Positions 21,973 to 53,050 are shown, counted from the first letter of the stretch. The stretch is 64,000 nucleotides of DNA from Candidatus Woykebacteria bacterium RBG_13_40_15 (GCA_001816655.1 MHCP01000015.1:6485-70484), one strand, 5' to 3'. Program-made: numbers and translations. The notes: generated from the letters alone by a model not told the origin.

Positions 21973-22003
21973 AGCGGGCTCTAGGTATTTCCCAGAGCCC
22001 GCT
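21973..22003. repeat. boundary hairpin AGCGGGCTCT-loop-AGAGCCCGCT (island 1)
   Basis: 10-bp stem with 11-nt loop. Near-identical to the hairpin at 47434-47464. Confidence 0.6.
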
Positions 22004-22364
22004 TCACCACCAGCCACCGGCTGATGTCTCGCCATTACGGCGAGATCTGCTCTGGGCTTTTCTCAATGATTAATTTGAAGCTAAATTTCATTTTAAATTT
22101 CCTCGTGCTTATTCTAGCACAAATCGTTGAGTTTGTCAAACCTATAGTCACTCGACTACATCTCGCGCCTGTTTCTCTGCGAGATATAATACGCAAGTAT
22201 TACCTGCCCGACGCTAAAGCTTTGGCAGGCGGGCATTCTGCGTATTGTTTCCTTGCAGGATATAATAATCCGTCTCCTTTACTTTATTTTTGATCTATTT
22301 TGAACTGGTTGCTTTTACCAACCAAATAGTCAATAATAGTGGGCGAAGAAGAGGGACGATATTA

Positions 22365-22395
22365 CAGTAAGCAGAAAGCAGTAAGCAGTAAGCGG
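22365..22395. repeat. CAGTAAGC/CAGAAAGC short tandem repeat block
   Basis: cagtaagcagaaagcagtaagcagtaagcgg. Related motif at 22828-22870 and at 44501-44523. Confidence 0.6.
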
Positions 22396-22415
22396 GTTGG
22401 AACTAAAAATCAACT

Positions 22416-22847
22416 TTGCTAGCTGCTACAAGTTTTCTACAAAGTGCCTCGGCAGAGAGCAGAAAGCAGATGCCCAACAGTTCGAGTTTCGAAAAAATAA
22501 AGGCTTGGCAAAAAGGTCATCTATTAGCCTTGGAGGTTTACAAAGTTACCAAGTCGTTTCCGCGGGAAGAGGCTTTCGGTCTAACATCTCAGTTACAACG
22601 TGCTGCAATATCCGTCCCCACCAACATAGCAGAAGGTTACGCAAGACAAAATAATAAGGTCTTTGGAACATTTTTAGATACGGCTTACGCGTCGCTAGTT
22701 GAAATTAAGTATTTATTAAAGTTTTCTGCAGAGGTTGGTTATATTTCGAAACAAAATTTTATTAAATTAGAATCTTTAGCTGACGAGGTCGGCAAGGTTC
22801 TTTGGAAATTTATGAAGGAGGTAAAATCAGTAAGCAGTAATCGGTAA
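22416..22847 (+). CDS. four-helix-bundle protein (23S rRNA intervening-sequence protein / Avd-like family)
   Basis: 143 aa. Pattern KIKAWQKGHLLALEVYKVTKSFPREEAFGLTSQLQRAAISVPTNIAEGYAR is characteristic of the PF05635-type four-helix-bundle family, which includes DGR Avd. Confidence 0.6.
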   Translation: MLAATSFLQSASAESRKQMPNSSSFEKIKAWQKGHLLALEVYKVTKSFPREEAFGLTSQLQRAAISVPTNIAEGYARQNNKVFGTFLDTAYASLVEIKYLLKFSAEVGYISKQNFIKLESLADEVGKVLWKFMKEVKSVSSNR

Positions 22848-22934
22848 GCCTAATTGGAAAGCAGAAAGCAAACGCTAATTGTTATCTGCTAACTAACGGG
22901 TGCTAACTGTTCAACTGCTAACTGCTAACTGACT
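22828..22934. repeat. short tandem repeats: CAGTAAGC-like followed by four copies of GCTAACT
   Basis: cagtaagcagtaatcggtaagcc...gaaagcagaaagc, then gctaact at 22888, 22902, 22917 and 22924. GCTAACT approximates the reverse complement of AGTAAGC. Confidence 0.6.
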
Positions 22935-23459
22935 GTGCAGCAGCATCCTGTACCGCAAAACATAACTGGCTTTGAGTTTAAACTGATTGGCTTTCTGACT
23001 ATAAAGCAGTTTGCTTATTTGGCGGGGGCTTCTATCCTCTCTTTTGCTTGCTATTTTATATTGCCCGGCCTTTTGCGTTGGATGATTATCTTACCAGTTA
23101 TGGCGGCGGGAAGTGCTTTTGCCTTTCTGTCCCTAAACGGTATGTCTTTCGACAAATGGATCATTGCCTTTATCCGATTGATAAGCAACCCCCAGATAAG
23201 AGTTTGGAGAAAAACACCTAAGGTTATTAGCTTTCTAGCCCCAGAATTTTCCTACTATTTACGCCGAGGAGTAGAAGCGGCACAACCCACTCAAGCACCA
23301 AGCAAAGATCGTCTTAAACTCTTTGTTAGCCAACTTCAGGAACAAAAGCCAGAGGATCAGTTGGACGTTTTTGAAAAAAGCCGGCTCTCAAAGTTAAATT
23401 TTGCTGCCCGAGAGACTCCCCAAACACCTATACCGGACCAGGAAGGAGTGGCCCCTTAG
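22935..23459 (+). CDS. small two-TM membrane protein, possible VirB3-like T4SS component
   Basis: 174 aa with two adjacent TM helices near the N-terminus. Its position in the T4SS locus fits VirB3 or a VirB3-like protein. Confidence 0.3.
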   Translation: MQQHPVPQNITGFEFKLIGFLTIKQFAYLAGASILSFACYFILPGLLRWMIILPVMAAGSAFAFLSLNGMSFDKWIIAFIRLISNPQIRVWRKTPKVISFLAPEFSYYLRRGVEAAQPTQAPSKDRLKLFVSQLQEQKPEDQLDVFEKSRLSKLNFAARETPQTPIPDQEGVAP

Positions 23460-25262
23460 ATGACTGATATAACTGTCCCTCTAACAAGGGTCGGTAACCT
23501 TACTTCTGATCTACCGGAAAAAGCACCACCCTACCCAGGGGAAGCCCTCGCGGGAAGGTCTCCAAAGAGATTAGTCGAGGAGCAAAAAACAGGAGACTTG
23601 AAACTAGCATCCGCAACGCCTTTTAAACCAGTCGCTTCGATAAATTATCCGGAGAAAAATATTTACGTCGCGCCGCTTAATAATGTTCAGCCTAGCCGTG
23701 GCTTGAACCCAGTTGGTAGCCGAGGAGTGGTTTCCTTACCTATTCAGGGCGAGAGGGTTTTTGAAATCGAGGACGCAATCAGAAAGCCTGTTGAAGCACG
23801 TATCGAAAAACTTTTATCCCAATACGAGTCTCCACCCGTGGAGCAGGTAAAACCTCTACTCCCCCCACAAGGGCCTCCTCCTGTAGGAACGGGGGAAACA
23901 ACTGAGCAAGCTAAGACGGAGCTAGAGAACATTAAAGAGGCGGTTCGCAACGAGCTGCTAAAAAAGGGCGGCAAAGATCAAACCTTGACACCGATCCCGT
24001 CTGGGACGCCAGCAGCTACTGCCCCAGTGGCTGTTCCTTCAGCTTCGTCGCCGCAAATACAATCCCCACAAACAGCAACGATCCCAGCGGAGCAACAGCC
24101 AAGCGCGCCAAGCATTATATCTATACCTACGCCAACAGCGCCCAAGCAGGATGAAACTGAGATCCACAAACGGGTGGAGCCGCCTCAACCAGAACAGATT
24201 GTATCGCCACCAACAGAAGCGGCCAAAATTGGGCCTCCTACAACTCAAACCGCCCCCTTGCAGACAACTCCACCACCAGGCGAATCGGCGACAAGTAAGC
24301 TTTTTTCGGAGGCGGAAAAATTGCAAACTGAGCTAGCTAATTTACAAAAGGAAGTTTCGGAACAAAAGTTGGGGGGAAAAGGCGAGGGAACCGCGCAAGT
24401 CGGCGCCCCTACAACCCCCTCTTCTATTCCTGTTTCTATGCCTGTTCCCAATATTGTTGTTGCTCCTACTCCTCCCCAACCTACCCCTGTAACTACCCCT
24501 CCGGCTCAAAAATCTGCTCAAGATGAACAGATTAGGAGGCTAGTTACTGAGAGGTCGGAGCTACTTAAGCAAATTAATGATCTTAGCAGCAAGCTTCAGG
24601 ACGAGAAAACCCAAAAACAGACTGCGCAAGAGGATGCAGACTCATTTCGGAAAAAAACCAGCACCTTGGAGAAGGAAAAGGCCGATATTTTAGGGCAAAG
24701 CGAGGCTATTAAAGCAGACTTAGTGAAAAACCAGCAGGTCCCTACTTCAACGGAGGGCCTCCCTAAGGAAATAGAAAATCTACGCTCCCGCCTTTTAGTG
24801 GCTGAGCAAGCGAAAAAGGTAGACGAAGAAAAAATAAACCAACTAGAAGATTTAATTGCTGGGGCAAAGCAAATACCGCAAGGAAAAGTCGATCTAGTTG
24901 AACCGGAAAAAGCTAAGAGTGTAGAAACTTTATCTAAGCAGGGTGTAGTTAAAGTTGTTAAACCCGACCTTGCAGTTGGGAAAATGGCTCCTTCGTTGAC
25001 AAGCGCCCCCAATGTAATAAATGGCATCGTTCGGGACAAGGGGGGATTGCTTCTTTCAAATGTAATTATAGTCGTAAAGGATAGTACGGGCGACCCGGTA
25101 AGGGCCTTGAAGACGAATAAGATTGGTCAGTTTGCAATTTCGACGCCCCTACCAAATGGCACATATATTATGGAGCTAGAATCGACAACTAATAATTTTA
25201 ATAATATTCAGGTGGAACTCAAAGGCGAGGTATTGCCACCAATAGAGATAAAGGCTACCTAA
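23460..25262 (+). CDS. Pro/Gln-rich coiled-coil protein with C-terminal carboxypeptidase-regulatory-like beta-sandwich
   Basis: Long low-complexity Pro-rich region, coiled coil, and C-terminal GIVRDKGGLLLSNVIIVVKDSTGDPV...GQFAISTPLPNGTYIM. Possible envelope-spanning T4SS scaffold. Confidence 0.35.
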   Translation: MTDITVPLTRVGNLTSDLPEKAPPYPGEALAGRSPKRLVEEQKTGDLKLASATPFKPVASINYPEKNIYVAPLNNVQPSRGLNPVGSRGVVSLPIQGERVFEIEDAIRKPVEARIEKLLSQYESPPVEQVKPLLPPQGPPPVGTGETTEQAKTELENIKEAVRNELLKKGGKDQTLTPIPSGTPAATAPVAVPSASSPQIQSPQTATIPAEQQPSAPSIISIPTPTAPKQDETEIHKRVEPPQPEQIVSPPTEAAKIGPPTTQTAPLQTTPPPGESATSKLFSEAEKLQTELANLQKEVSEQKLGGKGEGTAQVGAPTTPSSIPVSMPVPNIVVAPTPPQPTPVTTPPAQKSAQDEQIRRLVTERSELLKQINDLSSKLQDEKTQKQTAQEDADSFRKKTSTLEKEKADILGQSEAIKADLVKNQQVPTSTEGLPKEIENLRSRLLVAEQAKKVDEEKINQLEDLIAGAKQIPQGKVDLVEPEKAKSVETLSKQGVVKVVKPDLAVGKMAPSLTSAPNVINGIVRDKGGLLLSNVIIVVKDSTGDPVRALKTNKIGQFAISTPLPNGTYIMELESTTNNFNNIQVELKGEVLPPIEIKAT

Positions 25263-25982
25263 ATGGCTAAACCAAAAAGAATACCACTAACTCAAGAGCA
25301 TTTGGATATCGAAGATATTCGAGATGATGTTGTTATTCTAAAAAGTGGGACCGCGGCTGCGGTTCTCCAAACAACTGCTATTAATTTTGATTTACTGAGC
25401 GAACAGGAGCAAGATTCAGTCATTTTTGCATTTGCGGGCTTACTAAATTCTATAACCTACCCCATTCAAGTGTTGATACGCAGTAAAAGAGTTGATATTT
25501 CCAATTACATATTAAGGATCGCCGAGGCAAAGAGGAAAACCCATAATCAAAGCTTGGTCTCCCAAATTGAAAAATACGAAAACTTTATTAAGGATCTCGT
25601 ATCAAAAAACCAGGTTCTTGACAAGAGATTTTATGTAATAATCCCTTATTTTAATATTGAGCTTTCTCAATTAACTGGGGGTCTGGGATCAATTTTCCAC
25701 CCAAAGGCCGTCAAAGAGCATAAATGGGCCACTTTGGAAAAAGCGAAGGTAAATTTGGAACCAAAAGTGGAGCACCTCATAAAGCAATTTTCGCGGCTTG
25801 GGGTAAAAACTATCCGTTTAACAACCGAGGAGCTAGTTGAACTTTATTATGATCTTTACAATGCTGATATCGCGCGCGAGGAGAAAGCGGCGCTTGGAAC
25901 CAAAGAATATACGACACCAATAGTTGAGCCAAAAATTACACCCGTAGCAACTCCGCCAGCAGAGGAAGGGGTCAAACAGTAA
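25263..25982 (+). CDS. VirB4 N-terminal-domain-like protein (possible split VirB4, part 1)
   Basis: VVILKSGTAAAVLQTTAINFDLLSEQEQDSVIFAFAGLLNSITYPIQVLIRSKRVDI matches the N-terminal pattern of Gram-positive VirB4/TrsE-like ATPases. Stop lies 3 nt before the next ATG. Confidence 0.45.
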   Translation: MAKPKRIPLTQEHLDIEDIRDDVVILKSGTAAAVLQTTAINFDLLSEQEQDSVIFAFAGLLNSITYPIQVLIRSKRVDISNYILRIAEAKRKTHNQSLVSQIEKYENFIKDLVSKNQVLDKRFYVIIPYFNIELSQLTGGLGSIFHPKAVKEHKWATLEKAKVNLEPKVEHLIKQFSRLGVKTIRLTTEELVELYYDLYNADIAREEKAALGTKEYTTPIVEPKITPVATPPAEEGVKQ

Positions 25983-25985
25983 TCC

Positions 25986-27800
25986 ATGACATTTAATATT
26001 TTTGGAAAAAAACAAAAAACACAACCAGAAAATCCCAATCTACAAAGTACCCGAGACAAAACCGCGAGATTCCTTGGTACTGGAATGGTTGATGTAAAGG
26101 ATGTTATTGCACCAGCAGCAATACAGGTCGAGTTTGATCATGTAAAAATCGGCGAAACATATTTTAGAACCCTTTTAGTTGCTGGTTACCCCAGATTTAT
26201 AGGAGCTAACTGGCTTGCCCCTTTAATCAACTTTGATCACACTCTTGATCTTTCCTTTTTCTACTACCCTGTAGAAACCAGGGGTATTTTAAGCGATCTG
26301 AGACGTAAAATAGCAGAAATGGAAGCAACAATCGAATCTGATTTGGAATCTGGTAGGGTCCTTGATCCAGCCATTAGGGCCTCCCTTGAAGATGCCCAAG
26401 AGTTGCAGGAGCAGCTGGCTACTGGAATTGAAAGGTTTTTTCAGTTTTCCTTTTATATCAAAATACCCGCAAATAGTTTGGAGGAATTAAATAAAATAAC
26501 GCGGGAGGTGGAAGCTGTTGCTGGATCCTTGTTGATAATAACTAAACACGCAAGCTTGCAACAAGAGCAGGGATTTCAAAATACCTTACCTTACTTTTCC
26601 GACAAATTATTCTCAATTAGAAACATGGATACAATAAGTCTTGCCACAACCTTCCCCTTTACAAGTTCCGAATTAACGGCAGACGAGGGTGTCCTCTACG
26701 GAATAAATGAGCATAATGGATCCCTAGTTATTTTTGACCGTTTCTCGCTAGAAAATGCTAACAGTGTTGTTTTTGCAAAATCGGGAGCAGGAAAAAGCTA
26801 TCTAGTTAAGTTGGAGGCTTTGCGCTCTTTAATGTTTGGTACCGAAATAATCATCATCGACCCTGAAGATGAGTACAAAGATCTAGCGGTGACCATCGGC
26901 GGTGAATATATAAAATTCGCCCAAAATCAGCCGGCAAAAATTAACCCATTTGACCTTTCCGGAATCTATGAAGAAGGGGAGAATGAGCTTGGATTAAAGA
27001 TCTTATCCCTTCACGCTCTTTTTCGAATAATGTTAGGGGAACTTACTCCTACCGAAGATGCCATTCTTGATCGGGCCTTAATAACTACTTATAAACTCAA
27101 GGGGGTTACTCCAGATCCTGCAACACAAACTAAAGAACCTCCAATTTTGGCCGATTTATACAATGTGCTGCAGAATATGGCGGAGTCTTCAGCAAGGGAA
27201 ATGGCGCAAAGGCTGGAAAAATTCATAAAAGGCTCGCTCTCTGGTATTTTTGACCAGCCTAGTACAGTTAACTTGTCCAACTCATTCACAGTTTTCTCCA
27301 TTAGAGAGCTCGAAGACGAGCTGCGTCCTATTGCTATGTTCATTGTCCTTGATCATATCTGGACTAAGATTAAGAGGGATAGAAAAAAGAGACTTCTTGT
27401 AGTGGACGAGGCTTGGTATTTAATGAAATACCAAGATTCTGCTTCATTTATGTATTCTATGGCAAAGAGGGCTCGTAAATACAACTTGGGGGTAACAACT
27501 ATCACGCAGGATGTTGAGGATTTTTTGAACAGTGACTACGGTAAAGCAATTGTTACGAACTCTTCCATCCAAGTTTTGCTTAAGCAGAGCCCGGCTGCAA
27601 TTGATAAAATTGTTGAAGTATTTTATTTATCGGCTGGTGAAAAAAATCTTTTACTTTCGTCAGATATTGGTGAGGGGCTGTTCTTTGTAGGCCCCAATCA
27701 TGTAGCAATTAGGATCCAGGCGTCGCCTGATGAACACATGCTTTTAACACGCGGGCAGCAAACTCCCAAACCCACGGAAGAGCCGCCTAAGGCTCAATAA
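25986..27800 (+). CDS. VirB4/TraE/CagE-family conjugal-transfer ATPase (C-terminal ATPase part)
   Basis: Walker A VVFAKSGAGKSYLVK and Walker B RLLVVDEAWYLM (DEAW is typical of VirB4). 604 aa. Confidence 0.75.
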   Translation: MTFNIFGKKQKTQPENPNLQSTRDKTARFLGTGMVDVKDVIAPAAIQVEFDHVKIGETYFRTLLVAGYPRFIGANWLAPLINFDHTLDLSFFYYPVETRGILSDLRRKIAEMEATIESDLESGRVLDPAIRASLEDAQELQEQLATGIERFFQFSFYIKIPANSLEELNKITREVEAVAGSLLIITKHASLQQEQGFQNTLPYFSDKLFSIRNMDTISLATTFPFTSSELTADEGVLYGINEHNGSLVIFDRFSLENANSVVFAKSGAGKSYLVKLEALRSLMFGTEIIIIDPEDEYKDLAVTIGGEYIKFAQNQPAKINPFDLSGIYEEGENELGLKILSLHALFRIMLGELTPTEDAILDRALITTYKLKGVTPDPATQTKEPPILADLYNVLQNMAESSAREMAQRLEKFIKGSLSGIFDQPSTVNLSNSFTVFSIRELEDELRPIAMFIVLDHIWTKIKRDRKKRLLVVDEAWYLMKYQDSASFMYSMAKRARKYNLGVTTITQDVEDFLNSDYGKAIVTNSSIQVLLKQSPAAIDKIVEVFYLSAGEKNLLLSSDIGEGLFFVGPNHVAIRIQASPDEHMLLTRGQQTPKPTEEPPKAQ

Positions 27801-28884
27801 TTTTTCCATCAACCATATTTAATACACGGGCCCGCTTTTTAAATTCCGCTGTTAGAAGATCGAGGCTCGTGGTCGTAATTAATATCTGGCGTGCGCTAAT
27901 GTGAGTAAGGAGCAGCCCCCTGTTCTTTTCGTCAAGTTCGCTCGTAACATCGTCGAGAAGTATTACCGGAGGCTCGCCGAAAATTCGCGAAAAAAGCTGG
28001 GCTTGGGCAAGGTTCAATAAAATTATGGCTTGGCGTTTTTCTGCTCTGGAACCAAAGGGGCCTAAATCTTTCTCCAAAATTGATTGTCCTAACTCTTCCT
28101 CTACAACTAGTTTGAGGTCGTCTCTGTGTGGGCCAAAAGTAGTCATTATTAACCGCCGTTCTACACCTCGTTTATTTTTAAGGGCTCGTAAGAACTCTTT
28201 CTTACTTAGTCCCTCACTCTCTAGATTAATTGGGACCGTGTATTCAATACGAGCATTTTTTCCTATCGTTCCTTTTGAGATTTTATTTAGAATTCTATTT
28301 AAACTGCTTATTTCTTTTTCGCGCTCCTGCCAAAGTTTTATGCCGTACTTGGCAAGAAGCCTATCCCATGTTTCAAGTTGTTCCTCAGTCGCATTTCCAC
28401 CGGAGATTTTGAGAAGCTTGTTCCGATTAATCAGGGTTTTATTGTAATTAATCAAATTGAAAAGGTAACCTCGATTTATTGTTGCGATTAATTTGTCCAG
28501 CCAAACCCTTCTAGCGGCTGGTGGCCCTCCAATTAGTTCTATTTCTCCTGGGTGAAAAAGGACTGTTGCTAGCCTGCCCAAAAGATAAGTAGCTGGCTTT
28601 GTTTTATTATTGATTATTATCTTGGTTTCTCCCTCTCGGTAAAGGAATATACGAATACTACCCTTACTAGTCTCACCGAATATCTCAGCGTTACTCTCGT
28701 TCCAATTGATCGCCTCGCTTCTTGTTCCATGAAACGGTTTGCCATAAGAGAGCAAATAAACAGCCTCGATGAGGTTTGTTTTCCCCTGACCATTGCCTCC
28801 AACAACAATTGTTACTCCGCTACCCAATTGTAGGTCGGAAATATCTAGATTTCGGAAGTTTCTTATGGAAAGGGTTTTCAACAT
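27787..28884 (-). CDS. recF: DNA replication and repair protein RecF
   Basis: N-terminal LSIRNFRNL...IVVGGNGQGKTNLIEAV Walker A. SMC-like signature near the C-terminus. Confidence 0.85.
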   Translation of the reverse strand: MLKTLSIRNFRNLDISDLQLGSGVTIVVGGNGQGKTNLIEAVYLLSYGKPFHGTRSEAINWNESNAEIFGETSKGSIRIFLYREGETKIIINNKTKPATYLLGRLATVLFHPGEIELIGGPPAARRVWLDKLIATINRGYLFNLINYNKTLINRNKLLKISGGNATEEQLETWDRLLAKYGIKLWQEREKEISSLNRILNKISKGTIGKNARIEYTVPINLESEGLSKKEFLRALKNKRGVERRLIMTTFGPHRDDLKLVVEEELGQSILEKDLGPFGSRAEKRQAIILLNLAQAQLFSRIFGEPPVILLDDVTSELDEKNRGLLLTHISARQILITTTSLDLLTAEFKKRARVLNMVDGKIIEP

Positions 28885-29985
28885 TTAACTTTGCGGGCGG
28901 ACAGGCATGATTACAAAACTAAGATTCTTTTTGTCCCTGCCGCGGAAGATGGCAGCACTTGTACTTCCACTAAGGGACATCGTCATCTGCTCGTCCTTAA
29001 TAGCGGAGAGGCTCTCGAGCAGAAACCGCGAATTGAAAGCCAGGGTCATTTTTTCGCCATCAATATTAGCGTGCATCTCTGTCTCGGCATCTCCCACTTG
29101 GCTGGTGGCTCCTGTTAATTTAAGCTTTCCTGCGCCAAGCTCAATCTTAACTACATTACCAACATCTCGGGCAAACAAGGCCCCCAATTTTACAGCATTT
29201 ACCAGCGCTTTCGTGCTAACAGTCACTGTGGAGCAAAAGGCTGTTGGTATTATTTGTTCAAAACTTGGATAGGCTCCTTCTAGGAGTCTGCTTATAATAA
29301 TTAGGTTTCTAGTCTCAATTTTTGCCTGGTTTTTTTCTTTGTCAACAGATAGTTGCACCGTCTCGTCTTCTTGGTCGGCAACGGCTTTGACGGTTTCCTG
29401 AAGGGCTCTTGATGGGATTAATACCTCGAAATCACCAGAGCCTGTTATTTCATTTTTGCCTAGCCTGTAACCGTCCGTAGCGACAAAAACCAATTTACTA
29501 GCAGACCCTTTTATAAGTATCCCTGTTAGCACAGGGCGGCCTTCCTCAGCCGCCGCACAGAAAATAACCGAGGATACGGTATTTAAAAAGGTTTGCCTCT
29601 CCAATTCTAAGGTGGACGCGGATTCAAATGTAGTAACTTTCGGAAACTCGCTTGGGTTTATTGTGGAAAGGGTTGCTTTGGAGTCGCCCGACTCTAGTAA
29701 TACGCTATCCTTTACAGTTTTAATGGTGAGCTGCTCGTTTGTGGCGGCCTGACAAAAGTCAACCAAAAGTCTGGCAGGAACGGTAGTTTCTCCATTTTCC
29801 TCAATTTTTACACTCATTTGTTTTATGATTGTTGTTTCTAAATTGGTTCCGGTTATTTTAAGCATGCCGGAGTTTGCTTCCAGTAAAAGATTTCCCAATA
29901 CGGGTAAACTTAAACGTGTTGTTATTGCTTGTGAAACAAGAGACGCTGCCTTTAAAAGTGTTTCTCTGTTAGTGACTAACTTCAT
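28885..29985 (-). CDS. dnaN: DNA polymerase III beta sliding clamp
   Basis: 366 aa. N-terminus MKLVTNRETLLKAASLVSQAI...LPVLGNLLLEA is typical of DnaN. Sits between dnaA and recF. Confidence 0.85.
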   Translation of the reverse strand: MKLVTNRETLLKAASLVSQAITTRLSLPVLGNLLLEANSGMLKITGTNLETTIIKQMSVKIEENGETTVPARLLVDFCQAATNEQLTIKTVKDSVLLESGDSKATLSTINPSEFPKVTTFESASTLELERQTFLNTVSSVIFCAAAEEGRPVLTGILIKGSASKLVFVATDGYRLGKNEITGSGDFEVLIPSRALQETVKAVADQEDETVQLSVDKEKNQAKIETRNLIIISRLLEGAYPSFEQIIPTAFCSTVTVSTKALVNAVKLGALFARDVGNVVKIELGAGKLKLTGATSQVGDAETEMHANIDGEKMTLAFNSRFLLESLSAIKDEQMTMSLSGSTSAAIFRGRDKKNLSFVIMPVRPQS

Positions 29986-30090
29986 TTTTATTACTTAATA
30001 TTAATAATAGTCGTAGTAATAGAGGCAGAAAAAAGTAAATTTTATACTACAACAAGCAGGGGAAAGGTTTGTGGAAAAACGCAAAAGTTA
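29986..30090. promoter_or_regulatory. candidate oriC segment (dnaA-dnaN intergenic, AT-rich with DnaA-box-like TGTGGAAAA)
   Basis: AT-rich TTAATATTAATAATAG plus a one-mismatch DnaA box. Position is classic between dnaA and dnaN. Confidence 0.35.
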
Positions 30091-31452
30091 TTAACCACCA
30101 AGGGCCTTATCCTTGACCTCTGCAACTATTCTACCAATTTCCCCATCCTTTTCCACTAGGTTTTCCACCTTGCTGACAGAATAAATTACCGTGGTGTGGT
30201 CCCTACCCCCTAAAAGAGAGGCGATCTCGTTAAAAGAAAGCCCCACCTCAGTGCGTAGTAAGTACATTGCTACTTGCCGGGGAAAAACACACTCTTTGCC
30301 CCTTTTTACGCCCCGTAAGTCCGATAAACTAAGAGAGAAAAACCTAGCTATTTCGGCCAATATTTCTTCCGCGGAGGGCTTCTTTGGGGGATCCAAATTA
30401 ATTGAGTTTTTTACGAGCTCCTCATTTATAGCTCGTCCAGTAAGCTTTGCAATAGCAAGCAACCGTAGTAATCCACCCTCCAAAGACCGAACGCTTGGGC
30501 CTAAACGCTCCGCCATAAAGCGAATTGTGGGAAAATCTATTGAAGCCCCTTCCGAATGCGCCTTTGCCAGCAGAATTGCCTCTCTTAGTTCCAGGTCGGG
30601 GGTTTCTATCTTGACTACCATACCACCAGAAAACCTGTTTCTCAACCGCTCATGTAGATTTGAAAGTTGTGCTGGATCACGATCGCAACAAAGAATAATC
30701 TGTTTACCACGACCGTGCAGATGATTAAAAGTGTGAAAAAATTCTTCTTGAGTGCTTTCTCTCCCAGCTATAAACTGAATATCATCAATAAGCAAGAGAT
30801 CCACGGCCCGATATTTGGCCCGAAAATCTACAGTTTGCCGTTTTTGAATAGCTTCAATCATATCGTTGGTAAAAGTCTCGCTTGAGGAATAAATTACCCG
30901 GCTAGGGTTTCGGCGAAGAATTACTCCCTGGCCAATCGCCTGCAGGAGGTGGGTCTTTCCCACCCCAACCCCACCGTAGATTAAAAGCGGATTGTAACGC
31001 TCAAAGGGGGAGTCGACAACGGCTTTGGCAACAGCGTAAGCAAGTTGATTAGATTGGCCGACGATAAAATCTGCGAACGAATATTTTGGATTTATATTGG
31101 AAACAACCAAGGACTCCTTGATTGTTGAGGAAGCAGCGTCCTCAAACAAAGGTATGGCCAGCTCCGGATTTTTCGGCTCCTTCACTTTTGGCGCCTCAAG
31201 CCCTTTTGCGGAAACCGTGAAGACTAAGGTCGCAGATGCCCCGGAGATACGCTCAACAATTTCCTTTATTTGCCCTAAGTATCGTTCTTCAATCCATGTT
31301 TTATTGTATGGGCTAGAGCAACCAATTTCCACAACACCGTCCTTGAGAGACAATACTCCAGTCTTGCCCTTAAACCAAGTTTGAAAGTTGGCGGCGGACA
31401 ATGTTAATTGTAATTCAGTTAAAACCGATTCCCAAAGGGATTTTTCATCCAT
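30091..31452 (-). CDS. dnaA: chromosomal replication initiator DnaA
   Basis: AAA+ Walker A GGVGVGKTHLLQAIG, Walker B LLLIDDIQF, and a C-terminal DNA-binding domain (HTTV). Confidence 0.9.
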   Translation of the reverse strand: MDEKSLWESVLTELQLTLSAANFQTWFKGKTGVLSLKDGVVEIGCSSPYNKTWIEERYLGQIKEIVERISGASATLVFTVSAKGLEAPKVKEPKNPELAIPLFEDAASSTIKESLVVSNINPKYSFADFIVGQSNQLAYAVAKAVVDSPFERYNPLLIYGGVGVGKTHLLQAIGQGVILRRNPSRVIYSSSETFTNDMIEAIQKRQTVDFRAKYRAVDLLLIDDIQFIAGRESTQEEFFHTFNHLHGRGKQIILCCDRDPAQLSNLHERLRNRFSGGMVVKIETPDLELREAILLAKAHSEGASIDFPTIRFMAERLGPSVRSLEGGLLRLLAIAKLTGRAINEELVKNSINLDPPKKPSAEEILAEIARFFSLSLSDLRGVKRGKECVFPRQVAMYLLRTEVGLSFNEIASLLGGRDHTTVIYSVSKVENLVEKDGEIGRIVAEVKDKALGG

Positions 31453-31661
31453 AAGTGCGCATTAAATTAGGCAGGAGACATCAGGAAAAGCTAGCCCTCG
31501 AGATTAGGGGCCCTACTATAATAGCAAGCGGGTTTAAGGAGCGGTCAAGATACTAAAAATATAGCAAACTAGATCGCCCACTTTTTATGAGGCTAAAAAC
31601 TATTTTCGAATTGACAAACCGAGTTTGGGGCCATATACTCTAACAGAAAAATTGAGGACAA

Positions 31662-31799
31662 ATGCCTAAACGAACATATCAGCCAAAGAAATTAAAAAGA
31701 AAAAAGAAACACGGTTTCCTATCAAAGATGGCAAATAAAAGTGGTAGGTCAGTTATAAGTAAACGCCGCTTAAAGGGGCGTAGACGGCTCGCGATCTAA
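31662..31799 (+). CDS. rpmH: 50S ribosomal protein L34
   Basis: 45-aa [48 protein letters not shown]. Not in the ORF track because it is under 60 aa. Immediately upstream of rnpA. Confidence 0.9.
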
Positions 31800-31801
31800 T
31801 T

Positions 31802-33922: not shown

Positions 33923-33924
33923 AA

Positions 33925-35559: not shown

Positions 35560-35616
35560 ATTAGGAGTCTAGTGGCTCCTTGCGTAAGAACAAGCCTTTT
35601 GTTAAACTAACCCCCG

Positions 35617-35970: not shown

Positions 35971-36007
35971 ATTGTTGTATTGACGAGGCCTTTATAATGA
36001 TTCTTGC

Positions 36008-39165: not shown

Positions 39166-39262
39166 TGTGACAAAGTATATAGTAAGTTAAAGACGCTTGC
39201 AATCTAGCGACCGGTTTAAATAAAACCGAAAGCAAGGGATATATTAAAAACCAAGTAGGAAA

Positions 39263-39913
39263 ATGTCCGCTCGTTTTGGTAAACTTATATTAATGGATGA
39301 AAATCTAAATTTCGATGTCTTAGCTGAGGATAATATTAGAATATTAGCAGTACCAAATGAGAACTTTAAGAAACCGCTATGCGTAATTTTGGTGGGCTAT
39401 CCAGGGGCAGGAAAAACCCATTTGGTAGAAAGATTAAAACAAAAATTTCCATTTACTGTTCTTTCTGAGGAAGATATGACTAGTTTTTTGTCCCCCCGAG
39501 CAACAATATTTAAGCGTGGCGCAGTTGAGGTTTTCAAATTAGCCCTAAAAACCATCGAACACTTATTAAAAAAAGGTAAGTCGTGTATTTATGACGCAAA
39601 TATTAAAACAAGGGAACAGCGGGATTTAATTAAAAAAGCAGTTGAATTTGCAGGAGGCAACTACCTGTTAGTTTTGGTAAATTACCCAAAGGAAGAATGT
39701 TACGAGCGAAGCCAAAAGCAAAACTTTGAAATAAGTAGAGGCGAGGCAAAAGGTTTTATAGTTGATAGGGATTTTTTCGAATTTGAAGTAGCTTCTACAC
39801 ACCTTCCCGCTCCTAATGAGCAACACATAGATTACGACGGGCAAAACGAAGAAGCCCCCCTCCAACTTTACCCAGTATTGGAAGAACGGTTCAAGCAGTC
39901 AGAGCAGTATTGA
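39263..39913 (+). CDS. P-loop kinase-like protein (AAA_33/zeta-toxin-like fold)
   Basis: Walker A VILVGYPGAGKTHLVERL. 216 aa. Confidence 0.45.
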   Translation: MSARFGKLILMDENLNFDVLAEDNIRILAVPNENFKKPLCVILVGYPGAGKTHLVERLKQKFPFTVLSEEDMTSFLSPRATIFKRGAVEVFKLALKTIEHLLKKGKSCIYDANIKTREQRDLIKKAVEFAGGNYLLVLVNYPKEECYERSQKQNFEISRGEAKGFIVDRDFFEFEVASTHLPAPNEQHIDYDGQNEEAPLQLYPVLEERFKQSEQY

Positions 39914-40882
39914 TGGGTCGGGTTCCAGTTTGCTCCACGGAACAATTTTATAGTTGAAGTAGGCAGCTGCCGCGACCATAACCCCATTATCAACCGAAAG
40001 ATTAATCGGCGGAAAGAAGACTGGAATGGAAAGGCTTTTACCAGCCTCTTCTCTAAGTAGTTTGTTTGCGGCCACCCCTCCCCCAAAAACAATACTTTCC
40101 GCGGGCAGACTGGCGGAAGCTTTTTTAGCTTTTGTAATTAAAACTTCTACAACTGCTGCTTGAACACTGGCAGCAATATTATTGATATTATCGCTGAGAT
40201 TCTCCTCACCAATATTACTAACCAAACTAGTAACAGCCGTTTTAAGACCGCTGAATGAAAAATCATAATCAGGGGAGTTGAGTAGAGGCCTTGGAAGATT
40301 AAATTTTTGAGAATCACCTTGTATTGCTGCCTTTTCTATCGCAGGGCCGCCAGGATAGCCTAGGCGTAGAAGACGGGCTATTTTATCAAGAGACTCTCCT
40401 GCAGCATCGTCCCTGGTACCCCCGAGAGATTTATAATTTCCATGCCCCTGCATATAAACTAATTCCGTATGCCCGCCGGAGACTATAAGAGCAATGAGGG
40501 GAAATTTTGGTGGGGTTGTGTTTTCAATCCAGGTAGCATAAATATGAGAAATTAGATGACTCACTGGGATTAGTGGTTTTTTCCATACATAGGAAAGTGT
40601 TTTGGCAACTTCAACACCAACAATTAGTGAGCCATGTAGACCGGGACCGAAGGTAACTGCGATTGCATCGATTTGCTTTGAGGGAGGCTCTCCTAATACC
40701 TCAGTAACAACTGGAATTATTGTTTTGGTTTGCTCGCGCGCCGCGATCTCTGGTATTATTCCGCCAGACTTAGCGTGCAAAGGTAGGGAAGAAGCAAGGC
40801 TGCTGGAGATAACTTTAGTGCCGTTTTCGACAATGGCAACAGCCGTTTCGTCACAGGAAGTTTCTACACCTAGGATTTTCAT
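39899..40882 (-). CDS. tsaD: tRNA N6-adenosine threonylcarbamoyltransferase TsaD/Kae1
   Basis: MKILGVETSCDETAVAIV and the conserved HxxxH-less ASKH fold motifs GGVAAN. Confidence 0.85.
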   Translation of the reverse strand: MKILGVETSCDETAVAIVENGTKVISSSLASSLPLHAKSGGIIPEIAAREQTKTIIPVVTEVLGEPPSKQIDAIAVTFGPGLHGSLIVGVEVAKTLSYVWKKPLIPVSHLISHIYATWIENTTPPKFPLIALIVSGGHTELVYMQGHGNYKSLGGTRDDAAGESLDKIARLLRLGYPGGPAIEKAAIQGDSQKFNLPRPLLNSPDYDFSFSGLKTAVTSLVSNIGEENLSDNINNIAASVQAAVVEVLITKAKKASASLPAESIVFGGGVAANKLLREEAGKSLSIPVFFPPINLSVDNGVMVAAAAYFNYKIVPWSKLEPDPSILL

Positions 40883-40943
40883 ATTGCTTGCCTGTCCTGA
40901 GCCTGTCGAAGGATTTCAATCCCCAAAATTTTCATAAGCTTGG

Positions 40944-41483
40944 TTACTGCCCATAATGAACTGGCGGTTTTGGGGACCGCTTTCTTCTAGGTGACAATAA
41001 ATATTGGGCCGCGTCTGCGTCCAGATCAGTAAATTCATCCGCTTCAGCAATTAATTTGTTGGAAGCGCTAGGTTTAAAGGCCATAACTTCAACCCTGTGG
41101 CCCTGATTCCTTAAAAATTCCACAGCGTCTTTATAATCACCATCTCCGGAAACAAGAACCATTACATCCAATTTAGAAGAGAGGCGAATCATATCAATCA
41201 CGACCCCGACATCCCAATCCGCTTTCTTTTGCCCACCGGGAAAAACCTGAATATCCTTTACCTTTACTTCGAAGCCGGCTTTTTGTAGAGCATCAAAAAA
41301 AGATTGTTCTAGGGGTTCCTCAGCACGGACAACATAAGCGATCGCTCTAATTAGTTGTCGGCCACCAACAGCGTCTTCTAGTATTTTTCCAAAATTTACT
41401 TTAGATCCATAAAGATTTTTGGCCGAATAATACATATTTTGAACATCTACAAAAACCCCAACTCTTTGCGAAATGTTTTTCAT
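40944..41483 (-). CDS. NYN/LabA-like PIN-fold domain protein
   Basis: VGVFVDVQNMYY...LVSGDGDY pattern of LabA/NYN nucleases. Confidence 0.65.
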   Translation of the reverse strand: MKNISQRVGVFVDVQNMYYSAKNLYGSKVNFGKILEDAVGGRQLIRAIAYVVRAEEPLEQSFFDALQKAGFEVKVKDIQVFPGGQKKADWDVGVVIDMIRLSSKLDVMVLVSGDGDYKDAVEFLRNQGHRVEVMAFKPSASNKLIAEADEFTDLDADAAQYLLSPRRKRSPKPPVHYGQ

Positions 41484-41567
41484 TTCAATTCACCACCCTT
41501 CGACCAGTAATAATTGAAGAACTGATGCTGTTATGATAACATTTAGAGCAGTTTTTAGCGAGGATCT

Positions 41568-42446
41568 ATGAAAAAAGTTACAAAAGCAATAATCCCCGCG
41601 GCTGGTTTCGGAACTCGCTTTTTGCCACAAACAAAGGCAATGCCCAAAGAAATGCTCCCCGTGGTTGATAAGCCGGTTATTCAATATGTCGTTGAAGAGG
41701 TAGTAGCCTCTGGGATTTTCGACATTATTATCGTTACCGGGTCATCCAAAAGAGCAATCGAGGACCATTTTGATCGGGCCTATGATTTGGAATTTTTTCT
41801 TTCTCAGTCAGGAAAAGGAGATAAATTAGAGGAAATTCGTAAGATTGCCAATATGGCAAATTTTGTTTTTGTAAGTCAGAGGGGGCCATATGGAAATGCT
41901 GGGCCAGTTCTTAGTGCAAGCCACCTTATAGCGAAGGACGAACCATTTGCTGTTATTTGGGGAGACGAATTTATTTATGCGGACCCCCCACGCTTAAAGC
42001 AGCTGATTGATGTTTTTGAAAAATATCAAAAATCGGCAATTAGCGGAGTGAGAGTCGATAAAAAAGACCTTTCAAAATATGGGATATCAAAAATAGAATC
42101 AGTCGAGGATAATGTGTATAAGATATTAGACATCGTCGAGAAACCGACGCTGGAAGAGGCCCCTTCAAATTTAGCGACTCACGGGGCTTATATTTTTACC
42201 CCTAGTATGCTCGGTTACCTATCTGACTTGAAACCTGGGAAGGGTGGGGAGCTGTGGCTATCGGAAGCGATCGAGGCACTGCTAAAAAAAGAGTCGGTAT
42301 ACGCTGTAGAAATTAAAAACGGTAGGTATTACGATACTGGGGACAAACTTGGCTACCTAAAGACGATAATTGATTTCTCCATCGATCACCCTGAATTTGG
42401 GAATGAAATAAAAGAATATATAAAAGAAAAAGCTAGGGCTTTTTGA
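41568..42446 (+). CDS. galU: UTP-glucose-1-phosphate uridylyltransferase
   Basis: AIIPAAGFGTRFLPQTKAMPKEMLPVVDKP N-terminal nucleotidyltransferase signature. Confidence 0.8.
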   Translation: MKKVTKAIIPAAGFGTRFLPQTKAMPKEMLPVVDKPVIQYVVEEVVASGIFDIIIVTGSSKRAIEDHFDRAYDLEFFLSQSGKGDKLEEIRKIANMANFVFVSQRGPYGNAGPVLSASHLIAKDEPFAVIWGDEFIYADPPRLKQLIDVFEKYQKSAISGVRVDKKDLSKYGISKIESVEDNVYKILDIVEKPTLEEAPSNLATHGAYIFTPSMLGYLSDLKPGKGGELWLSEAIEALLKKESVYAVEIKNGRYYDTGDKLGYLKTIIDFSIDHPEFGNEIKEYIKEKARAF

Positions 42447-42541
42447 TCAGACTTGACAAATAAACGGCTACCTTTTAAAATCTTGTCTTGCCCAAGTGCT
42501 CTGTTATCTGTACCACCTTTAATAAAAGCTAATAAAGAATT

Positions 42542-44492
<1,951 letters not shown>

Positions 44493-44500
44493 GCAGATAT

Positions 44501-44523
44501 CAGAAAGCAGACAGCAGTAAGCG
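44501..44523. repeat. CAGAAAGCAG...CAGTAAGCG motif at left edge of GC-rich island 2
   Basis: cagaaagcagacagcagtaagcg shares a 10-mer and a 9-mer with the repeat at 22365-22395. Confidence 0.5.
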
Positions 44524-44632
44524 TTAGAAGTAGGCCTTAGGAACCTCAAAGCCTGTAGTTCTCCACTCGTTTCGGATAATTTTGATCTTCCCATAAATTT
44601 TTAACTTGAGAAAAAATGTGAAAACTAGGACA

Positions 44633-44666
44633 GTCAGGGGAACCTCGGTTTGGAAGTTCCCCTGAC
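44633..44666. terminator. strong hairpin downstream of minus-strand 295-aa ORF (11-bp stem GTCAGGGGAAC/GTTCCCCTGAC)
   Basis: Perfect 11-bp stem, 12-nt loop, and T-rich trailer on the minus strand. Confidence 0.5.
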
Positions 44667-44677
44667 GAGTGCGTGAA

Positions 44678-45565
44678 CTAGCTTTTCTTGACTAGCTTGC
44701 CGTGCGGTCTCCAGGAGGAAGGCCGGCCTTGTGTTATGACCTCAACCATTCTTGTTGGCCACTCTGTCCCGAATTGTAGGAGACGGCCGAATCCGAGACG
44801 TAGGGCCGTAGGTTTGTCTGGAAGCAACAACGGAAGCTCCTCGGGGTTTATTTTCTCACCCTCCCTGTAGAAAGCTGCATGGTGCTTTACTGGGCAGACT
44901 AGCAGTACTCTCTTGAGGAAGAAGAATGCGACGAAATGGTCCTCTCTATTGAGGCAGCGGACCAAATAAGTCGCCTCTGGTGCTAAGCCCCAAGGTATGG
45001 TTAGTCGCTTAGGATCCGTGGCCGAGTGCTGTTGCCAGGTAAAGACACCCCAGTGCTTCGTATATACCCTCCCCTCACTGTCGATTTTCACCACTTCCAT
45101 CAGGTCTGGTACCGGAGCGCGGGTGAGCGGGCCGGTCCCAACTAGCGGCGGCTGGCGGATTGGGGGCAGATCGTCCAAATGGAGACAGCCGATAAAGGGC
45201 CGCTTCTCTGGCCAGGTTTCCATTCCTTCCACTGCCCCAAAAGGTAGTACCTCTCTTCCAAACAGGATTTCCGAACCCTGCTTGAAAGTTCCAAACGTCG
45301 CTCCGTTGTCAGGATTGGGAAAGCCGAATCTACCAGAGGGTGAAACTCGGCAAAACCGGGTTGGAAGGCGCGCTCTTAGACATCTCTGATAGTAAAGACG
45401 TTCCATCCATGTCGGGGCTTGACCAAGACTCTGAACAAGTTCCCAGACATCCGACTCCCCCAGTAGCCATAGCCTATAGCGAAGCTCAAGATCTTCATCG
45501 GGCATGATCAGTAGGTGTGCGCCACTTGATGTAACCAGGTGAAACGTTAATTTGGCGGGCGGCAT
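44678..45565 (-). CDS. hypothetical protein (295 aa), GC-rich island 2, candidate retron accessory/effector
   Basis: Long ORF with island-like GC content. No recognisable motif. Confidence 0.5.
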   Translation of the reverse strand: MPPAKLTFHLVTSSGAHLLIMPDEDLELRYRLWLLGESDVWELVQSLGQAPTWMERLYYQRCLRARLPTRFCRVSPSGRFGFPNPDNGATFGTFKQGSEILFGREVLPFGAVEGMETWPEKRPFIGCLHLDDLPPIRQPPLVGTGPLTRAPVPDLMEVVKIDSEGRVYTKHWGVFTWQQHSATDPKRLTIPWGLAPEATYLVRCLNREDHFVAFFFLKRVLLVCPVKHHAAFYREGEKINPEELPLLLPDKPTALRLGFGRLLQFGTEWPTRMVEVITQGRPSSWRPHGKLVKKS

Positions 45566-45737
45566 GACGTTCCCTCCTTGGATTTGAACTCTCCTTAACT
45601 ACAATCTCCACTCCAACTGTTAAATATATTAAAACTTTTTTTGTAGCTGTCAAGCGGCTTTTAGCTAAAAAGTACCTTATTAATAAGCGAAGTTGAAAGT
45701 TGCAGATAAAACCATATTTATCTAAAATGTTATTGCT

Positions 45738-46223
45738 ATGGGGAAATTTGAGGCTTTGACACCAGAACAAGTAAGACAATTTGAAAAAGAAGCAGTTAAA
45801 AGATTTAACCACGAGGAAAACGATCATCCACATGTTGAACCCCAGGTGGGATCACTTGAGCTGGCCCGCTTTAAGGCCGTTTTTCCTTTCCAACTTTTTC
45901 CAGACGAGTTGATAGTCGAGGAAAAAAGAGTGATTTGGATTCATCGTTTTGGCCCACGAATGTGCGAGGTAATTACTCTTTTACCCTCCGATATAAATAG
46001 AGTCGAAGCTTCCACCGGCCCTCTCTTTGGCCATCTTCATGTCTCTATACCAAGGCACGATATTGAGATTCTTATCGACCGTCTTAAACGAAACGACGCT
46101 CTCTTTGCCCGTGATTTAATTGATGGTCTAGCTACAGCAGCCAGACAAAACCTAGCGATAGAAGGCGAAACTGCGCAAGAAAAAGTAGATTTTCTTCTCC
46201 GTCTTTCCCACGTGAGTGTCTAA
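45738..46223 (+). CDS. hypothetical protein (161 aa) immediately upstream of retron-like ncRNA, candidate effector
   Basis: Same strand as the RT, ending about 40 nt before the a1 repeat. No recognisable motif. Confidence 0.5.
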   Translation: MGKFEALTPEQVRQFEKEAVKRFNHEENDHPHVEPQVGSLELARFKAVFPFQLFPDELIVEEKRVIWIHRFGPRMCEVITLLPSDINRVEASTGPLFGHLHVSIPRHDIEILIDRLKRNDALFARDLIDGLATAARQNLAIEGETAQEKVDFLLRLSHVSV

Positions 46224-46262
46224 ACCTTGACCGAAAAAGCCCTAAATGATATAAAGACACTA

Positions 46263-46388
46263 ACTTGGGCTAGAGCTTAAGTGGCCCCAAATTGGCCCGC
46301 ACCGTCAGATGGCTGACTGGTGTAAACGGGAAGGCTGGCGCCTCGTTCCCGGCGCGCGTTTACCAGCCCGAACTTGAGTAGCCCAAGT
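46263..46388 (+). ncRNA. retron-like msr/msd non-coding RNA bracketed by a1/a2 inverted repeats
   Basis: Perfect 10-bp inverted repeat ACTTGGGCTA (46263-46272) and TAGCCCAAGT (46379-46388). The enclosed region has a GGCC hairpin and a long imperfect stem GACTGGTGTAAACGGGAAGGCTGGCGCC / GGCGCGCGTTTACCAGCC. It lies directly upstream of a retron-type RT. Confidence 0.55.
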
Positions 46389-47432
46389 GAGGATGGGGCT
46401 GCCGTACTAGCTAATAGCGCGGCAGCCCCTAGAAAATGGAGAGCGATAATGAGATCAATAGAGCCAGTTATATTCTCCAGCGGAGAAGGACGATTCCCAG
46501 CGGAGGGTTTGGAGGTTGACTATAATAGGTTCGGATTCAACCCCCTAGTCTACCTCGGGTTCCTAATAGGTATACCAACAAGGTGGATCGATTACGTAAT
46601 AAAAATCGGTGCCGACAACTTCTACACCGAAGTTAGGATACCGAAAAAGGGTGGTGGGGTGAGGGTTCTTCAAGTACCCCTAGATCCCTTAATGGGTATT
46701 CAGAGAAGGATTCTTCGCAAGGTTCTAAGCCAACTAGAGCCCAAGAGCTCCTGCCACGGCTTTGTTACTGGTAGATCGATAATTACCAATGCCCAAGTCC
46801 ATGTCGGATCAACGCACATGCTTGTCCTCGATCTGGAAAGTGCATTTGATCAAGGCCTGTCTAGTCGAATCTTTAGAGAGCTCTGGGGAGAGAGGGTTGG
46901 CGAGAGGAGGCTTGGATTTCTGGTCGCCTCCTTGATAACACAGCTCTGTACAGTATACAGCGGGGATATTGGAGAACGGTACGGGTTTCGGCACCTTCCT
47001 CAGGGAGCACCAACCTCACCAGCGCTCTTTAATCTTGCTTGCCGTCCGTTGGATGGAAGACTGGACCACTTCGTATGGAGAATCGGTGGGGTTTACACAC
47101 GCTATGCGGACAACCTTGCTTTCTCCGTTCCTAGACAACTGACCCCCAAGGAGGAGCATATAATTCGGAAGATAGTAGATGGGAGTGGTTTCAGAGTTAA
47201 CGATGCCAAAACGAGGTTGATGCGCCAAAGCGGGCACTCGATCCTGCGTCTTCCAGGGGTCGCTATCAACAACGGAAGGATAATACTTCCCAAGAGGAAG
47301 AGAAAGCAGCTGCGGGCAGCAATTTACCTAGCCGCCTTGCATGGAGAGACAGATAGGCTTCGGGGACTAATAGGCTTTGTGGAGCAGGTGTACGGCCCCG
47401 AAGTCCCAAGACAAATAATCGGTAGTCACTAG
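46374..47432 (+). CDS. retron-type reverse transcriptase (motif C reads YADN)
   Basis: RT motifs present: IPKKGGGVRVLQVP (motifs 1-2); HGFVTGRSIITNAQVH carrying the retron-specific VTG and NAxxH; LDLESAFD (motif A); LPQGAPTSPALFNLA (motif B); YTRYADNLAF (motif C with the second Asp replaced by Asn). The likely true start is ATG at 46449, which has a GGAGAG ribosome-binding site. Confidence 0.8.
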   Translation: MSSPSEDGAAVLANSAAAPRKWRAIMRSIEPVIFSSGEGRFPAEGLEVDYNRFGFNPLVYLGFLIGIPTRWIDYVIKIGADNFYTEVRIPKKGGGVRVLQVPLDPLMGIQRRILRKVLSQLEPKSSCHGFVTGRSIITNAQVHVGSTHMLVLDLESAFDQGLSSRIFRELWGERVGERRLGFLVASLITQLCTVYSGDIGERYGFRHLPQGAPTSPALFNLACRPLDGRLDHFVWRIGGVYTRYADNLAFSVPRQLTPKEEHIIRKIVDGSGFRVNDAKTRLMRQSGHSILRLPGVAINNGRIILPKRKRKQLRAAIYLAALHGETDRLRGLIGFVEQVYGPEVPRQIIGSH

Positions 47433-47433
47433 T

Positions 47434-47464
47434 AGCGGGCTCGCTTCCACAAACCGAGCCCGCT
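47434..47464. repeat. boundary hairpin AGCGGGCTCG-loop-CGAGCCCGCT (island 2, just after RT stop)
   Basis: 10-bp stem with 11-nt loop. Same stem sequence family as 21973-22003. Confidence 0.6.
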
Positions 47465-53030: not shown

Positions 53031-53050
53031 AAGCCCGGGCTAATAAATAT

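Follow-up and report, generated by a model that had tools for sequence, protein, structure and literature searches.

The DNA analyzed here is a stretch of 64,000 nucleotides from Candidatus Woykebacteria bacterium RBG_13_40_15 (GCA_001816655.1, MHCP01000015.1:6485-70484), which we call the window. It carries two hairpins that have most of their stem in common. H1 (21973-22003) lies upstream of a GC-rich minus-strand gene (18823-21681) that encodes a 952-residue protein and belongs to a type IV secretion system (T4SS) cluster, and H2 (47434-47464, plus strand) starts 2 nt past the stop codon TAG (47430-47432) of a retron-type reverse transcriptase (RT) gene. A sequence-only reading of the window had named the GC-rich gene and the RT unit islands 1 and 2, and proposed either that the hairpins form the ends of a single family of mobile elements or that they are terminators of a type brought in by donor DNA. 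We consider it probable that H1 and H2 are the transcription-stop hairpins of two unrelated transcription units and that neither is a mobile-element terminus.

The two sequences are exactly as first read, with nine of the ten stem pairs in common and an 11-nt loop in each. Both stems can be extended inwards beyond 10 bp. On the minus strand H1 has 14 pairs and a 5-nt loop, position 12 being a G-U wobble that becomes an A-C mismatch on the plus strand, and the fold energies are -28.9 kcal/mol (minus strand) and -23.4 kcal/mol (plus strand). H2 has 12 of 13 pairs, also with a 5-nt loop, and an energy of -19.7 to -21 kcal/mol (z = -5.1). Read on the minus strand, H2 is GGTGAGCGGGCTC and H1 is GGTGAAGCGGGCTC, the stem GCGGGCTC being preceded by GGTGA(A). 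This flank, (T)CACC at the right side on the plus strand, is the only likeness outside the stem. There is none beyond the stem plus 4-5 nt: the remaining flanks are no more alike than shuffled controls. Nor are the loops related, as the central 13 nt match at 1 of 13 positions.

The singular likeness of the two hairpins within the window also held up, in that H1 and H2 are its only matches to AGCGGGCTC-N9-15-GAGCCCGCT, a pattern that none of 100 shuffles contained. Perfect hairpins with a stem of at least 9 bp number eight in the 64 kb, and only one pair of them, H1 and H2, has an arm in common. The 9-mer half-site taken by itself gave 12 matches at one mismatch or fewer against 9.8 expected and so was not enriched. 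Within the 64 kb scanned, from a contig of 162,841 bp, this lack of enrichment speaks against an uptake-sequence or repetitive extragenic palindromic (REP) nature of the stem motif. The REP, bacterial interspersed mosaic element (BIME) and uptake-sequence families (DNA uptake sequence, DUS; uptake signal sequence, USS) are highly multicopy. Terminator pairs made of such elements resemble H1 and H2 in having an identical palindromic stem, differing loops and a position after genes, but the window has a mere pair of copies in its 64 kb, with the half-site at background frequency.

The T4SS-cluster gene and its leader

The 952-residue protein matched nothing in Pfam, PADLOC or PHROG, and its family has 10 representatives in 1.84 billion proteins, all of about 870-1017 residues and none with a Pfam domain. 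Genes for proteins of about 900 residues are found in three related Patescibacteria genomes, L126 (11865-14549), L129 (9766-12477) and L130 (9889-12657), in a conserved gene order and with Pfam content equal to that of the window. The order begins with T4SS pilins, Big_5, an M23 peptidase (minus strand), a membrane protein of about 560 residues (plus strand) and the gene of about 900 codons (minus strand), and continues with an optional gene of 321-376 codons, an optional four-helix IVP gene, PrgI, a CarboxypepD_reg-like gene, a TraC-like gene and a VirB4-like ATPase. The large proteins are homologous in their C-terminal 300 residues, where the window protein matches that of L129 at E = 8e-30 and that of L126 at 7e-10. 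In all four genomes the gene is 8-11 GC points above its neighbors, at identities down to less than 35%. Since the GC anomaly accompanies the gene in all four, it is a conserved gene property and no evidence of recent import. A chromosomal, relaxase-less T4SS cluster of Patescibacteria has been described (PMC12102498), and the window cluster matches it. Island 1 is a native part of this chromosomal cluster and not an insertion.

H1 stands 290 nt upstream of the large gene within a leader read from the minus strand. About 100 nt upstream of H1 a strong promoter of the sigma-70 type, its -10 element extended (TTGACA-17-TGcTAGAAT, 22111-22139, minus strand; 11 of 12 matches, TG present), drives the leader. 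Between promoter and hairpin lie an 18-codon open reading frame (ORF), MKFSFKLIIEKSPEQISP* (22035-22091, minus strand), and two small hairpins, TCTCGCC/GGCGAGA and CAGCC/GGCTG (22009-22045, minus strand). In its extended form H1 occupies 21972-22004 and reads AAGCGGGCTCTGGG-AAATA-CCTAGAGCCCGCTT, with one G-U among its 14 pairs. Next to it comes TATCTTTTTGT (21971-21961); the U-tract immediately 3' of the stem is UAUCUUUUUGU. In a scan of the region from 15 to 30 kb H1 was the top-ranked terminator-like site. The whole 147-nt leader transcript folds at z = -5.7. A second long imperfect hairpin, ACACCAAGGG...CCCTTGGTGT followed by GCUUUUUG, lies at 21818-21867 (minus strand), and the L126 and L130 leaders likewise contain an ACACCAA/TTGGTGT hairpin.

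The module of promoter, proline-rich ORF of 17-19 codons and T-tailed hairpin was kept in all four genomes (the window, L126, L129 and L130). The promoter with its ATTTGTGCTAnAcT spacer and -10 region precedes the small ORF in each of the three relatives. Their small ORFs are MKQFILKLNSNAQSPPTG (L126, about 14995-15041), MSTEDNISLVFAQSPPG (L129, about 12990-13041) and MNEAELRIKKLIIPEPPPW (L130, about 13127-13186), and the corresponding hairpin arms are GGGCCCCGAT and ATCGGAGCCC, GTGGGCTT and AAGCCCAC, and TGGGCTCTG and CAGAGCCCA. The hairpin sequences vary by paired changes around a GGGC/GCCC core found in all, and L130 has GGGCTCTGG in common with H1. H1 is therefore a native regulatory terminator that is conserved in position.

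The 3' part of the small ORF offers a partner for the terminator. In the window the 5' arm of H1 finds its complement in the segment GCCCAGAGC (22049-22057), and in all four genomes the ORF tail (AGCCCA..., CCAGAGCC...) is complementary to the terminator 5' arm. The predicted duplexes have energies of -19.8 to -24.6 kcal/mol and were better than shuffles in silico (p = 0, 0.012, 0.024 and 0 for the four genomes). The complementarity makes the ORF tail a candidate antiterminator strand, and the pairing with the small ORF partly dictates the stem sequence of H1. As judged from sequence, the leader would act as a translation-coupled terminator/antiterminator switch on read-through into the large gene, which suits the motifs prone to stalling at the ends of the small ORFs (SP-stop, PPG, PPTG and PPPW), and the proline-rich small ORFs may form a translation- or EF-P-sensing attenuator.

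Leader-peptide attenuators include the trp- and his-type operon leaders and those with the ribosome-stalling TnaC or polyproline motifs. The leader described here has their arrangement of promoter, short ORF, terminator and alternative pairing of the ORF with the 5' arm, in four genomes and with stall-prone ends. It differs from them in having no runs of one amino acid's regulatory codons and in that the target is the T4SS-cluster gene of about 900 codons. Attenuation at prgQ/IRS1 precedes the conjugation genes of the Enterococcus plasmid pCF10, where likewise a small ORF and a terminator stand before a T4SS cluster of the monoderm type with a PrgI-family gene among its members. The resemblance is one of analogy only, as there is no sequence similarity to the window leader and the likeness seen here takes in no antisense RNA or pheromone logic.

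Further features were seen in or near these leaders. The L126 leader hairpin occurs in tandem (14877-14895 and 14940-14958, 63 nt apart), alike in stem and loop, with an immediate T-tail on the first copy only. In the minus-strand RNA of the window there is a perfect 10-nt complementarity between UGGUGAAGCG (22000-22009), which overlaps the start of H1, and CGCUUCACCA 195 nt downstream in the leader (21795-21804), so that the terminator could face competition from yet another pairing. A direct repeat of 22 nt, TGTTTCyyTGCrrGATATAATA, occurs immediately upstream of the leader promoter, at 22170-22191 and 22246-22267 (82% identical); it may represent an operator or a promoter element in two copies.

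The retron-like unit and its 3' hairpin

The RT gene encodes 327 residues as annotated (46449-47432, plus strand; the ORF runs from 46374 or 46449 to 47432). The protein scored 1.5e-18 with Pfam RVT_1 and about 1e-55 with the retron RT models of PADLOC. It has the region X motif NAXXH in the form NAQVH, and all close relatives keep NAxxH. NAXXH is among the defining motifs of retron RTs (Mestre et al. 2020, PMC7736814). At the YXDD catalytic motif the window RT and its five or six closest relatives carry YADN (or FVDN) rather than YADD, and in RT7 the retron triplet VTG has given way to LPG, the G being kept; YADD was present in 107 of 120 homologues. A bAvd-like neighbor had suggested a diversity-generating retroelement (DGR), an idea ruled out by the QGxxSP and NAxxH motifs, which are retron-type and not DGR-type. 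No RT relatives were found in IMG/VR.

Upstream of the RT gene a candidate retron noncoding RNA (ncRNA; msr-msd) lies at 46260-46391 on the plus strand, closed by a 13-nt inverted repeat, CTAACTTGGGCTA/TAGCCCAAGTGAG, and folding into a multi-stem structure (z = -4.8). In four RT loci (the window, L001, L131 and L132) a 12-bp closing helix is kept through compensatory changes, with an invariant CUA-G after the 5' arm. On these features the RNA has the anatomy expected of a retron msr-msd and is a candidate for one. A hairpin GGGGCTGCCG...CGGCAGCCCC (46395-46429, plus strand) separates the ncRNA from the RT start, and a GGGGC...GCCCC hairpin stands at the equivalent place in L001, L131 and L132. 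The upstream structured RNA is conserved in the closest RT clade (P0003, P0004, P0006, P0007 and P0008; 283-343 residues, several from Patescibacteria), beside whose members no conserved effector neighbor was seen.

The unit thus resembles retrons in its RT, which scores about 1e-55 with retron models and carries NAXXH, and in an upstream RNA that an inverted repeat closes, with a covarying helix and a G after the 5' repeat. The clade departs from retrons in having YADN rather than YADD, LPG rather than VTG, and no conserved effector neighbor. H2 itself lies downstream of the RT and outside the msr-msd. In L001, L131 and L132 a stable hairpin, unrelated to H2 in sequence and followed by T-runs, stands 1-2 nt past the RT stop. 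These hairpins make H2, although it lacks a U-tract, the positional equivalent of an RT terminator, and as RT relatives already have a hairpin at the H2 position, no import is needed to explain it.

A 161-codon ORF (45738-46223, plus strand) lies upstream of the ncRNA and RT, and a GC-rich ORF of 295 codons (44678-45565, minus strand) is divergent from the RT unit; neither product matched a family, and neither ORF is conserved beside the RT relatives. The left edge of island 2 has a hairpin of its own, GTCAGGGGAAC...GTTCCCCTGAC (44633-44666, minus strand), 11 nt past the stop of the 295-codon gene. It shares the geometry of H1 (11 bp, one wobble pair that forms on the minus strand only, and 2 bp) and is unrelated to H1 in sequence. 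Rfam gave no family at threshold at H1, at H2 or in the retron region. Beyond H2, host homology upstream of a gene for a 424-residue protein resumes at 47558, 94 nt past the hairpin. An 85%-identical relative, L122, found in a metagenome scan with this 424-residue neighbor, has no H2-like hairpin and differs upstream of 47558, and GroEL is not syntenic there. No exact-protein matches for the 424-residue, 560-residue and GroEL proteins are on record.

Origin of the common stem

Stems of the AGCCCGC/GCGGGCT kind are common among bacterial intrinsic terminators, the E. coli trp terminator being an example. H1 and H2 are like such terminators in forming a GC-rich stem-loop right after a transcription unit, with a U-tract in the case of H1. 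They are unlike them in that H2 has no U-tract and in that the perfect stems of 10-11 bp, with their inner extensions containing a mismatch or wobble, are longer than typical. We scanned 185,579 species genomes and the IMG/VR viral contigs for the motif. The genomes gave at least 120 matches, each a single copy in an unrelated genome; those listed had a mean GC of 0.62, loop lengths spread evenly over 9-15 nt, and T-rich tails in 35 of 120. IMG/VR added 12 single-copy matches. Near none of the 132 listed loci was there a second copy or a homologue of the RT or of the 952-, 161- or 295-residue proteins. The occurrence of the motif as a single copy in over 130 genomes and viral contigs, unrelated to one another and for the most part GC-rich, argues that the stem is a generic solution to the formation of a strong GC hairpin.

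We favor the explanation given at the outset. The minus-strand transcript would run from the promoter through the 18-codon proline-ending ORF and the two small hairpins to H1 and its U-tract, and pairing of the 3' part of the small ORF with the H1 5' arm would put read-through into the large gene under translation-coupled control. H2 would be the 3' hairpin of the unit formed by the 161-codon ORF, the ncRNA and the RT, where it may mark or stabilize the 3' end of the transcript. No function is assigned to the 9-bp stem that they share or to its GGTGA/TCACC flank. Of the idea that donor DNA brought in the terminator type, the terminator part agrees with our results, as H1 is the top-ranked site of its region and H2 stands where RT relatives have terminators. 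The import part fails for H1, a native hairpin that keeps its position in the relatives.

Several observations weigh against this explanation. H2 has no U-tract on either strand and so is not a canonical intrinsic terminator, and a clear Shine-Dalgarno sequence precedes the small ORF in only two of the four genomes (the window and L126). An empirical null of 195 unrelated GC-rich hairpins gave p = 5.4e-4 per pair for a common 9-mer arm, which corresponds to about 0.5-1.5% for the window. The equal 13-nt centers and the GGTGA/TCACC flank lower the chance further, these features having been picked post hoc. Some real, shallow link between H1 and H2 is thus plausible. The stem identity most likely arose by convergence within the narrow space of strong GC hairpins or by small-scale copying of the leader hairpin long ago, two sources that the data do not separate.

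The second of these sources is the foremost alternative, possible and yet clearly less likely than independent terminators. It holds that H2 descends from the leader hairpin, the T4SS-leader terminator and its GGTGA flank having been duplicated or gene-converted to the retron 3' end and the center then replaced, with no mobile role. The arm is shared by chance at 1.5% or less, and the CACC/GGTG flank is rare, being present in 4 of the 132 listed external copies. The leader hairpins of the relatives are likewise preceded by GGTG(A)(G), as are H1 and H2 on the minus strand, and the tandem copies in L126 show that a leader hairpin is able to duplicate. However, a center that matches at 1 of 13 positions between identical stems is not expected of a simple copy under neutral drift, and neither the promoter nor the small ORF nor the T-tail of the leader is found next to H2.

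That one mobile family has its conserved ends, its att sites or other recombination sites in the hairpins, through two insertions or as the repeats flanking a single 25.5-kb element, we regard as very improbable. Its attractions are the identical stems, the equal spacer, the location of both hairpins at the right side of a GC-rich stretch, and a layout of half-site, N13 and half-site that would suit a dimeric DNA-binding protein. The reading is largely refuted by island 1, which is syntenic and homologous in three relatives with H1 inside the conserved leader. None of these relatives has an empty site for island 1; the locus is filled by the homologous gene and its leader. As T4SS genes lie on either side of H1 in every genome, the 25.5-kb interval from H1 to H2 is no insert. 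A check for target-site duplications, which the sequence-only reading had suggested, found none at either island, nor were there terminal repeats or extended terminal homology. No integrase, transposase or recombinase domain occurs in the four island proteins (the 952-, 295- and 161-residue proteins and the RT), the RT being of retron type and not that of a group II intron, and the 132 listed loci have no second copy of the motif. The stem is also absent from other island edges, which speaks against the proposal: the left edge of island 2 has the different hairpin at 44633-44666, and a third GC-rich patch (53100-54760) has no AGCGGGCTC hairpin.

The base composition that had drawn attention to the islands has another cause. 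Each hairpin was said to sit exactly at a GC-rich/AT-rich transition, which is correct for H2, where GC drops from 0.505 to 0.325, and only approximate for H1. The drop there is near 21900, and H1, 290 nt past the start codon of the GC-rich gene, is inside a structured leader of mixed composition. The RT and ncRNA exceed their host by 7-13 GC points in all four loci, just as the gene of about 900 codons exceeds its neighbors. A high GC content is intrinsic to either unit in all hosts examined, and the GC steps at H1 and H2 arise because the terminators fall at the edges of these units.

Other repeats and islands were noted in the window. BLASTN between islands 1 and 2 detected heptamer-repeat similarity only (22340-22394 against 44479-44523), unrelated to the hairpins. 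Tandem arrays of the heptamers CAGTAAG/CAGAAAG/CAGACAG lie in intergenic regions at 22365-22394, 22453-22469 and 44501-44523, and those of the relatives (CAGAGAG/CAGATAG/CAGGGAT) at about 14740-14800, 15150-15210 and 16760-16930 in L126 and at about 12700-12770 and 13380-13410 in L129. The arrays adjoin the four-helix IVP gene on its upstream side, follow directly upon the GroEL stop codon where island 2 has its left edge and, in the relatives, surround the T4SS leader; they resemble the heptamer repeats of cyanobacteria of the short tandemly repeated repetitive (STRR) type. The third GC-rich patch belongs to a segment (52957-55230) that looks like a small integrated island, with a tRNA-Cys gene, the patch itself (GC 0.47-0.57), orphan ORFs at 53391-53831 and 53946-54401, and a HicB/HicA pair at 54767-55230. 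The left end of the window has a tmRNA gene (5639-5996) and two tRNA-Ser genes (4370-4459 and 4693-4782), which are ordinary.

A functional connection between the two hairpins seems no better founded. The 3' end of the retron transcript could base-pair with H1 through the latter's 5' arm and GGUGA toehold and thereby tune termination in the T4SS leader; alternatively, a single protein could recognize both palindromes. The RNAs have 14 nt of complementarity with a single bulge (duplex -33.5 kcal/mol), and a constant stem with a free loop is the pattern expected of sequence-specific recognition. Upon co-folding, however, both hairpins stayed intact, the dimer having -62.9 kcal/mol against -59.5 kcal/mol for two monomers, and the gain with nascent leader was only about 4 kcal/mol. 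RNA pairing in trans between H1 and H2 is thus not supported, being thermodynamically unfavored. Moreover, relatives that have the leader show no evidence of a retron, and relatives that have the retron lack the leader. We know of no candidate protein for binding both palindromes. It is most doubtful that the stem identity and the single-stranded GGUGA/UCACC are under selection and that the retron 3' end, or a protein recognizing AGCGGGCTC-N13-GAGCCCGCT, acts on the T4SS-leader terminator. If true, this would couple a YADN retron-like element to secretion-system gene expression in an ultra-small episymbiotic bacterium.

Least credible of all is that a single ancestral retron island (161-codon ORF, ncRNA, RT, T-tailed hairpin and 952-residue effector) was split by an inversion between hairpin copies: undoing an inversion of 22004-47433 would put the T-tail after the RT hairpin, make the GC-rich stretches contiguous and leave the other hairpin longer by GGTG/CACC, but the present order (promoter, small ORF, T-tailed hairpin and gene of about 900 codons, with IVP and PrgI at the right) is ancestral in L126, L129 and L130, no RT lies at that locus in any of the three, and this conserved synteny rules the inversion out.

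A mobile-element signature common to the two islands would have mattered. That reading fails, and what remains of the hairpins is ordinary in kind, namely terminators. The analysis locates a retron-like cassette of RT and ncRNA, from an unusual YADN clade, in CPR (Candidate Phyla Radiation) bacteria, and it exposes a conserved leader, predicted to be attenuator-like, before an uncharacterized T4SS-cluster gene of about 900 codons. A compositional island in Patescibacteria can thus be a vertically conserved, GC-rich gene of a T4SS cluster rather than imported DNA.

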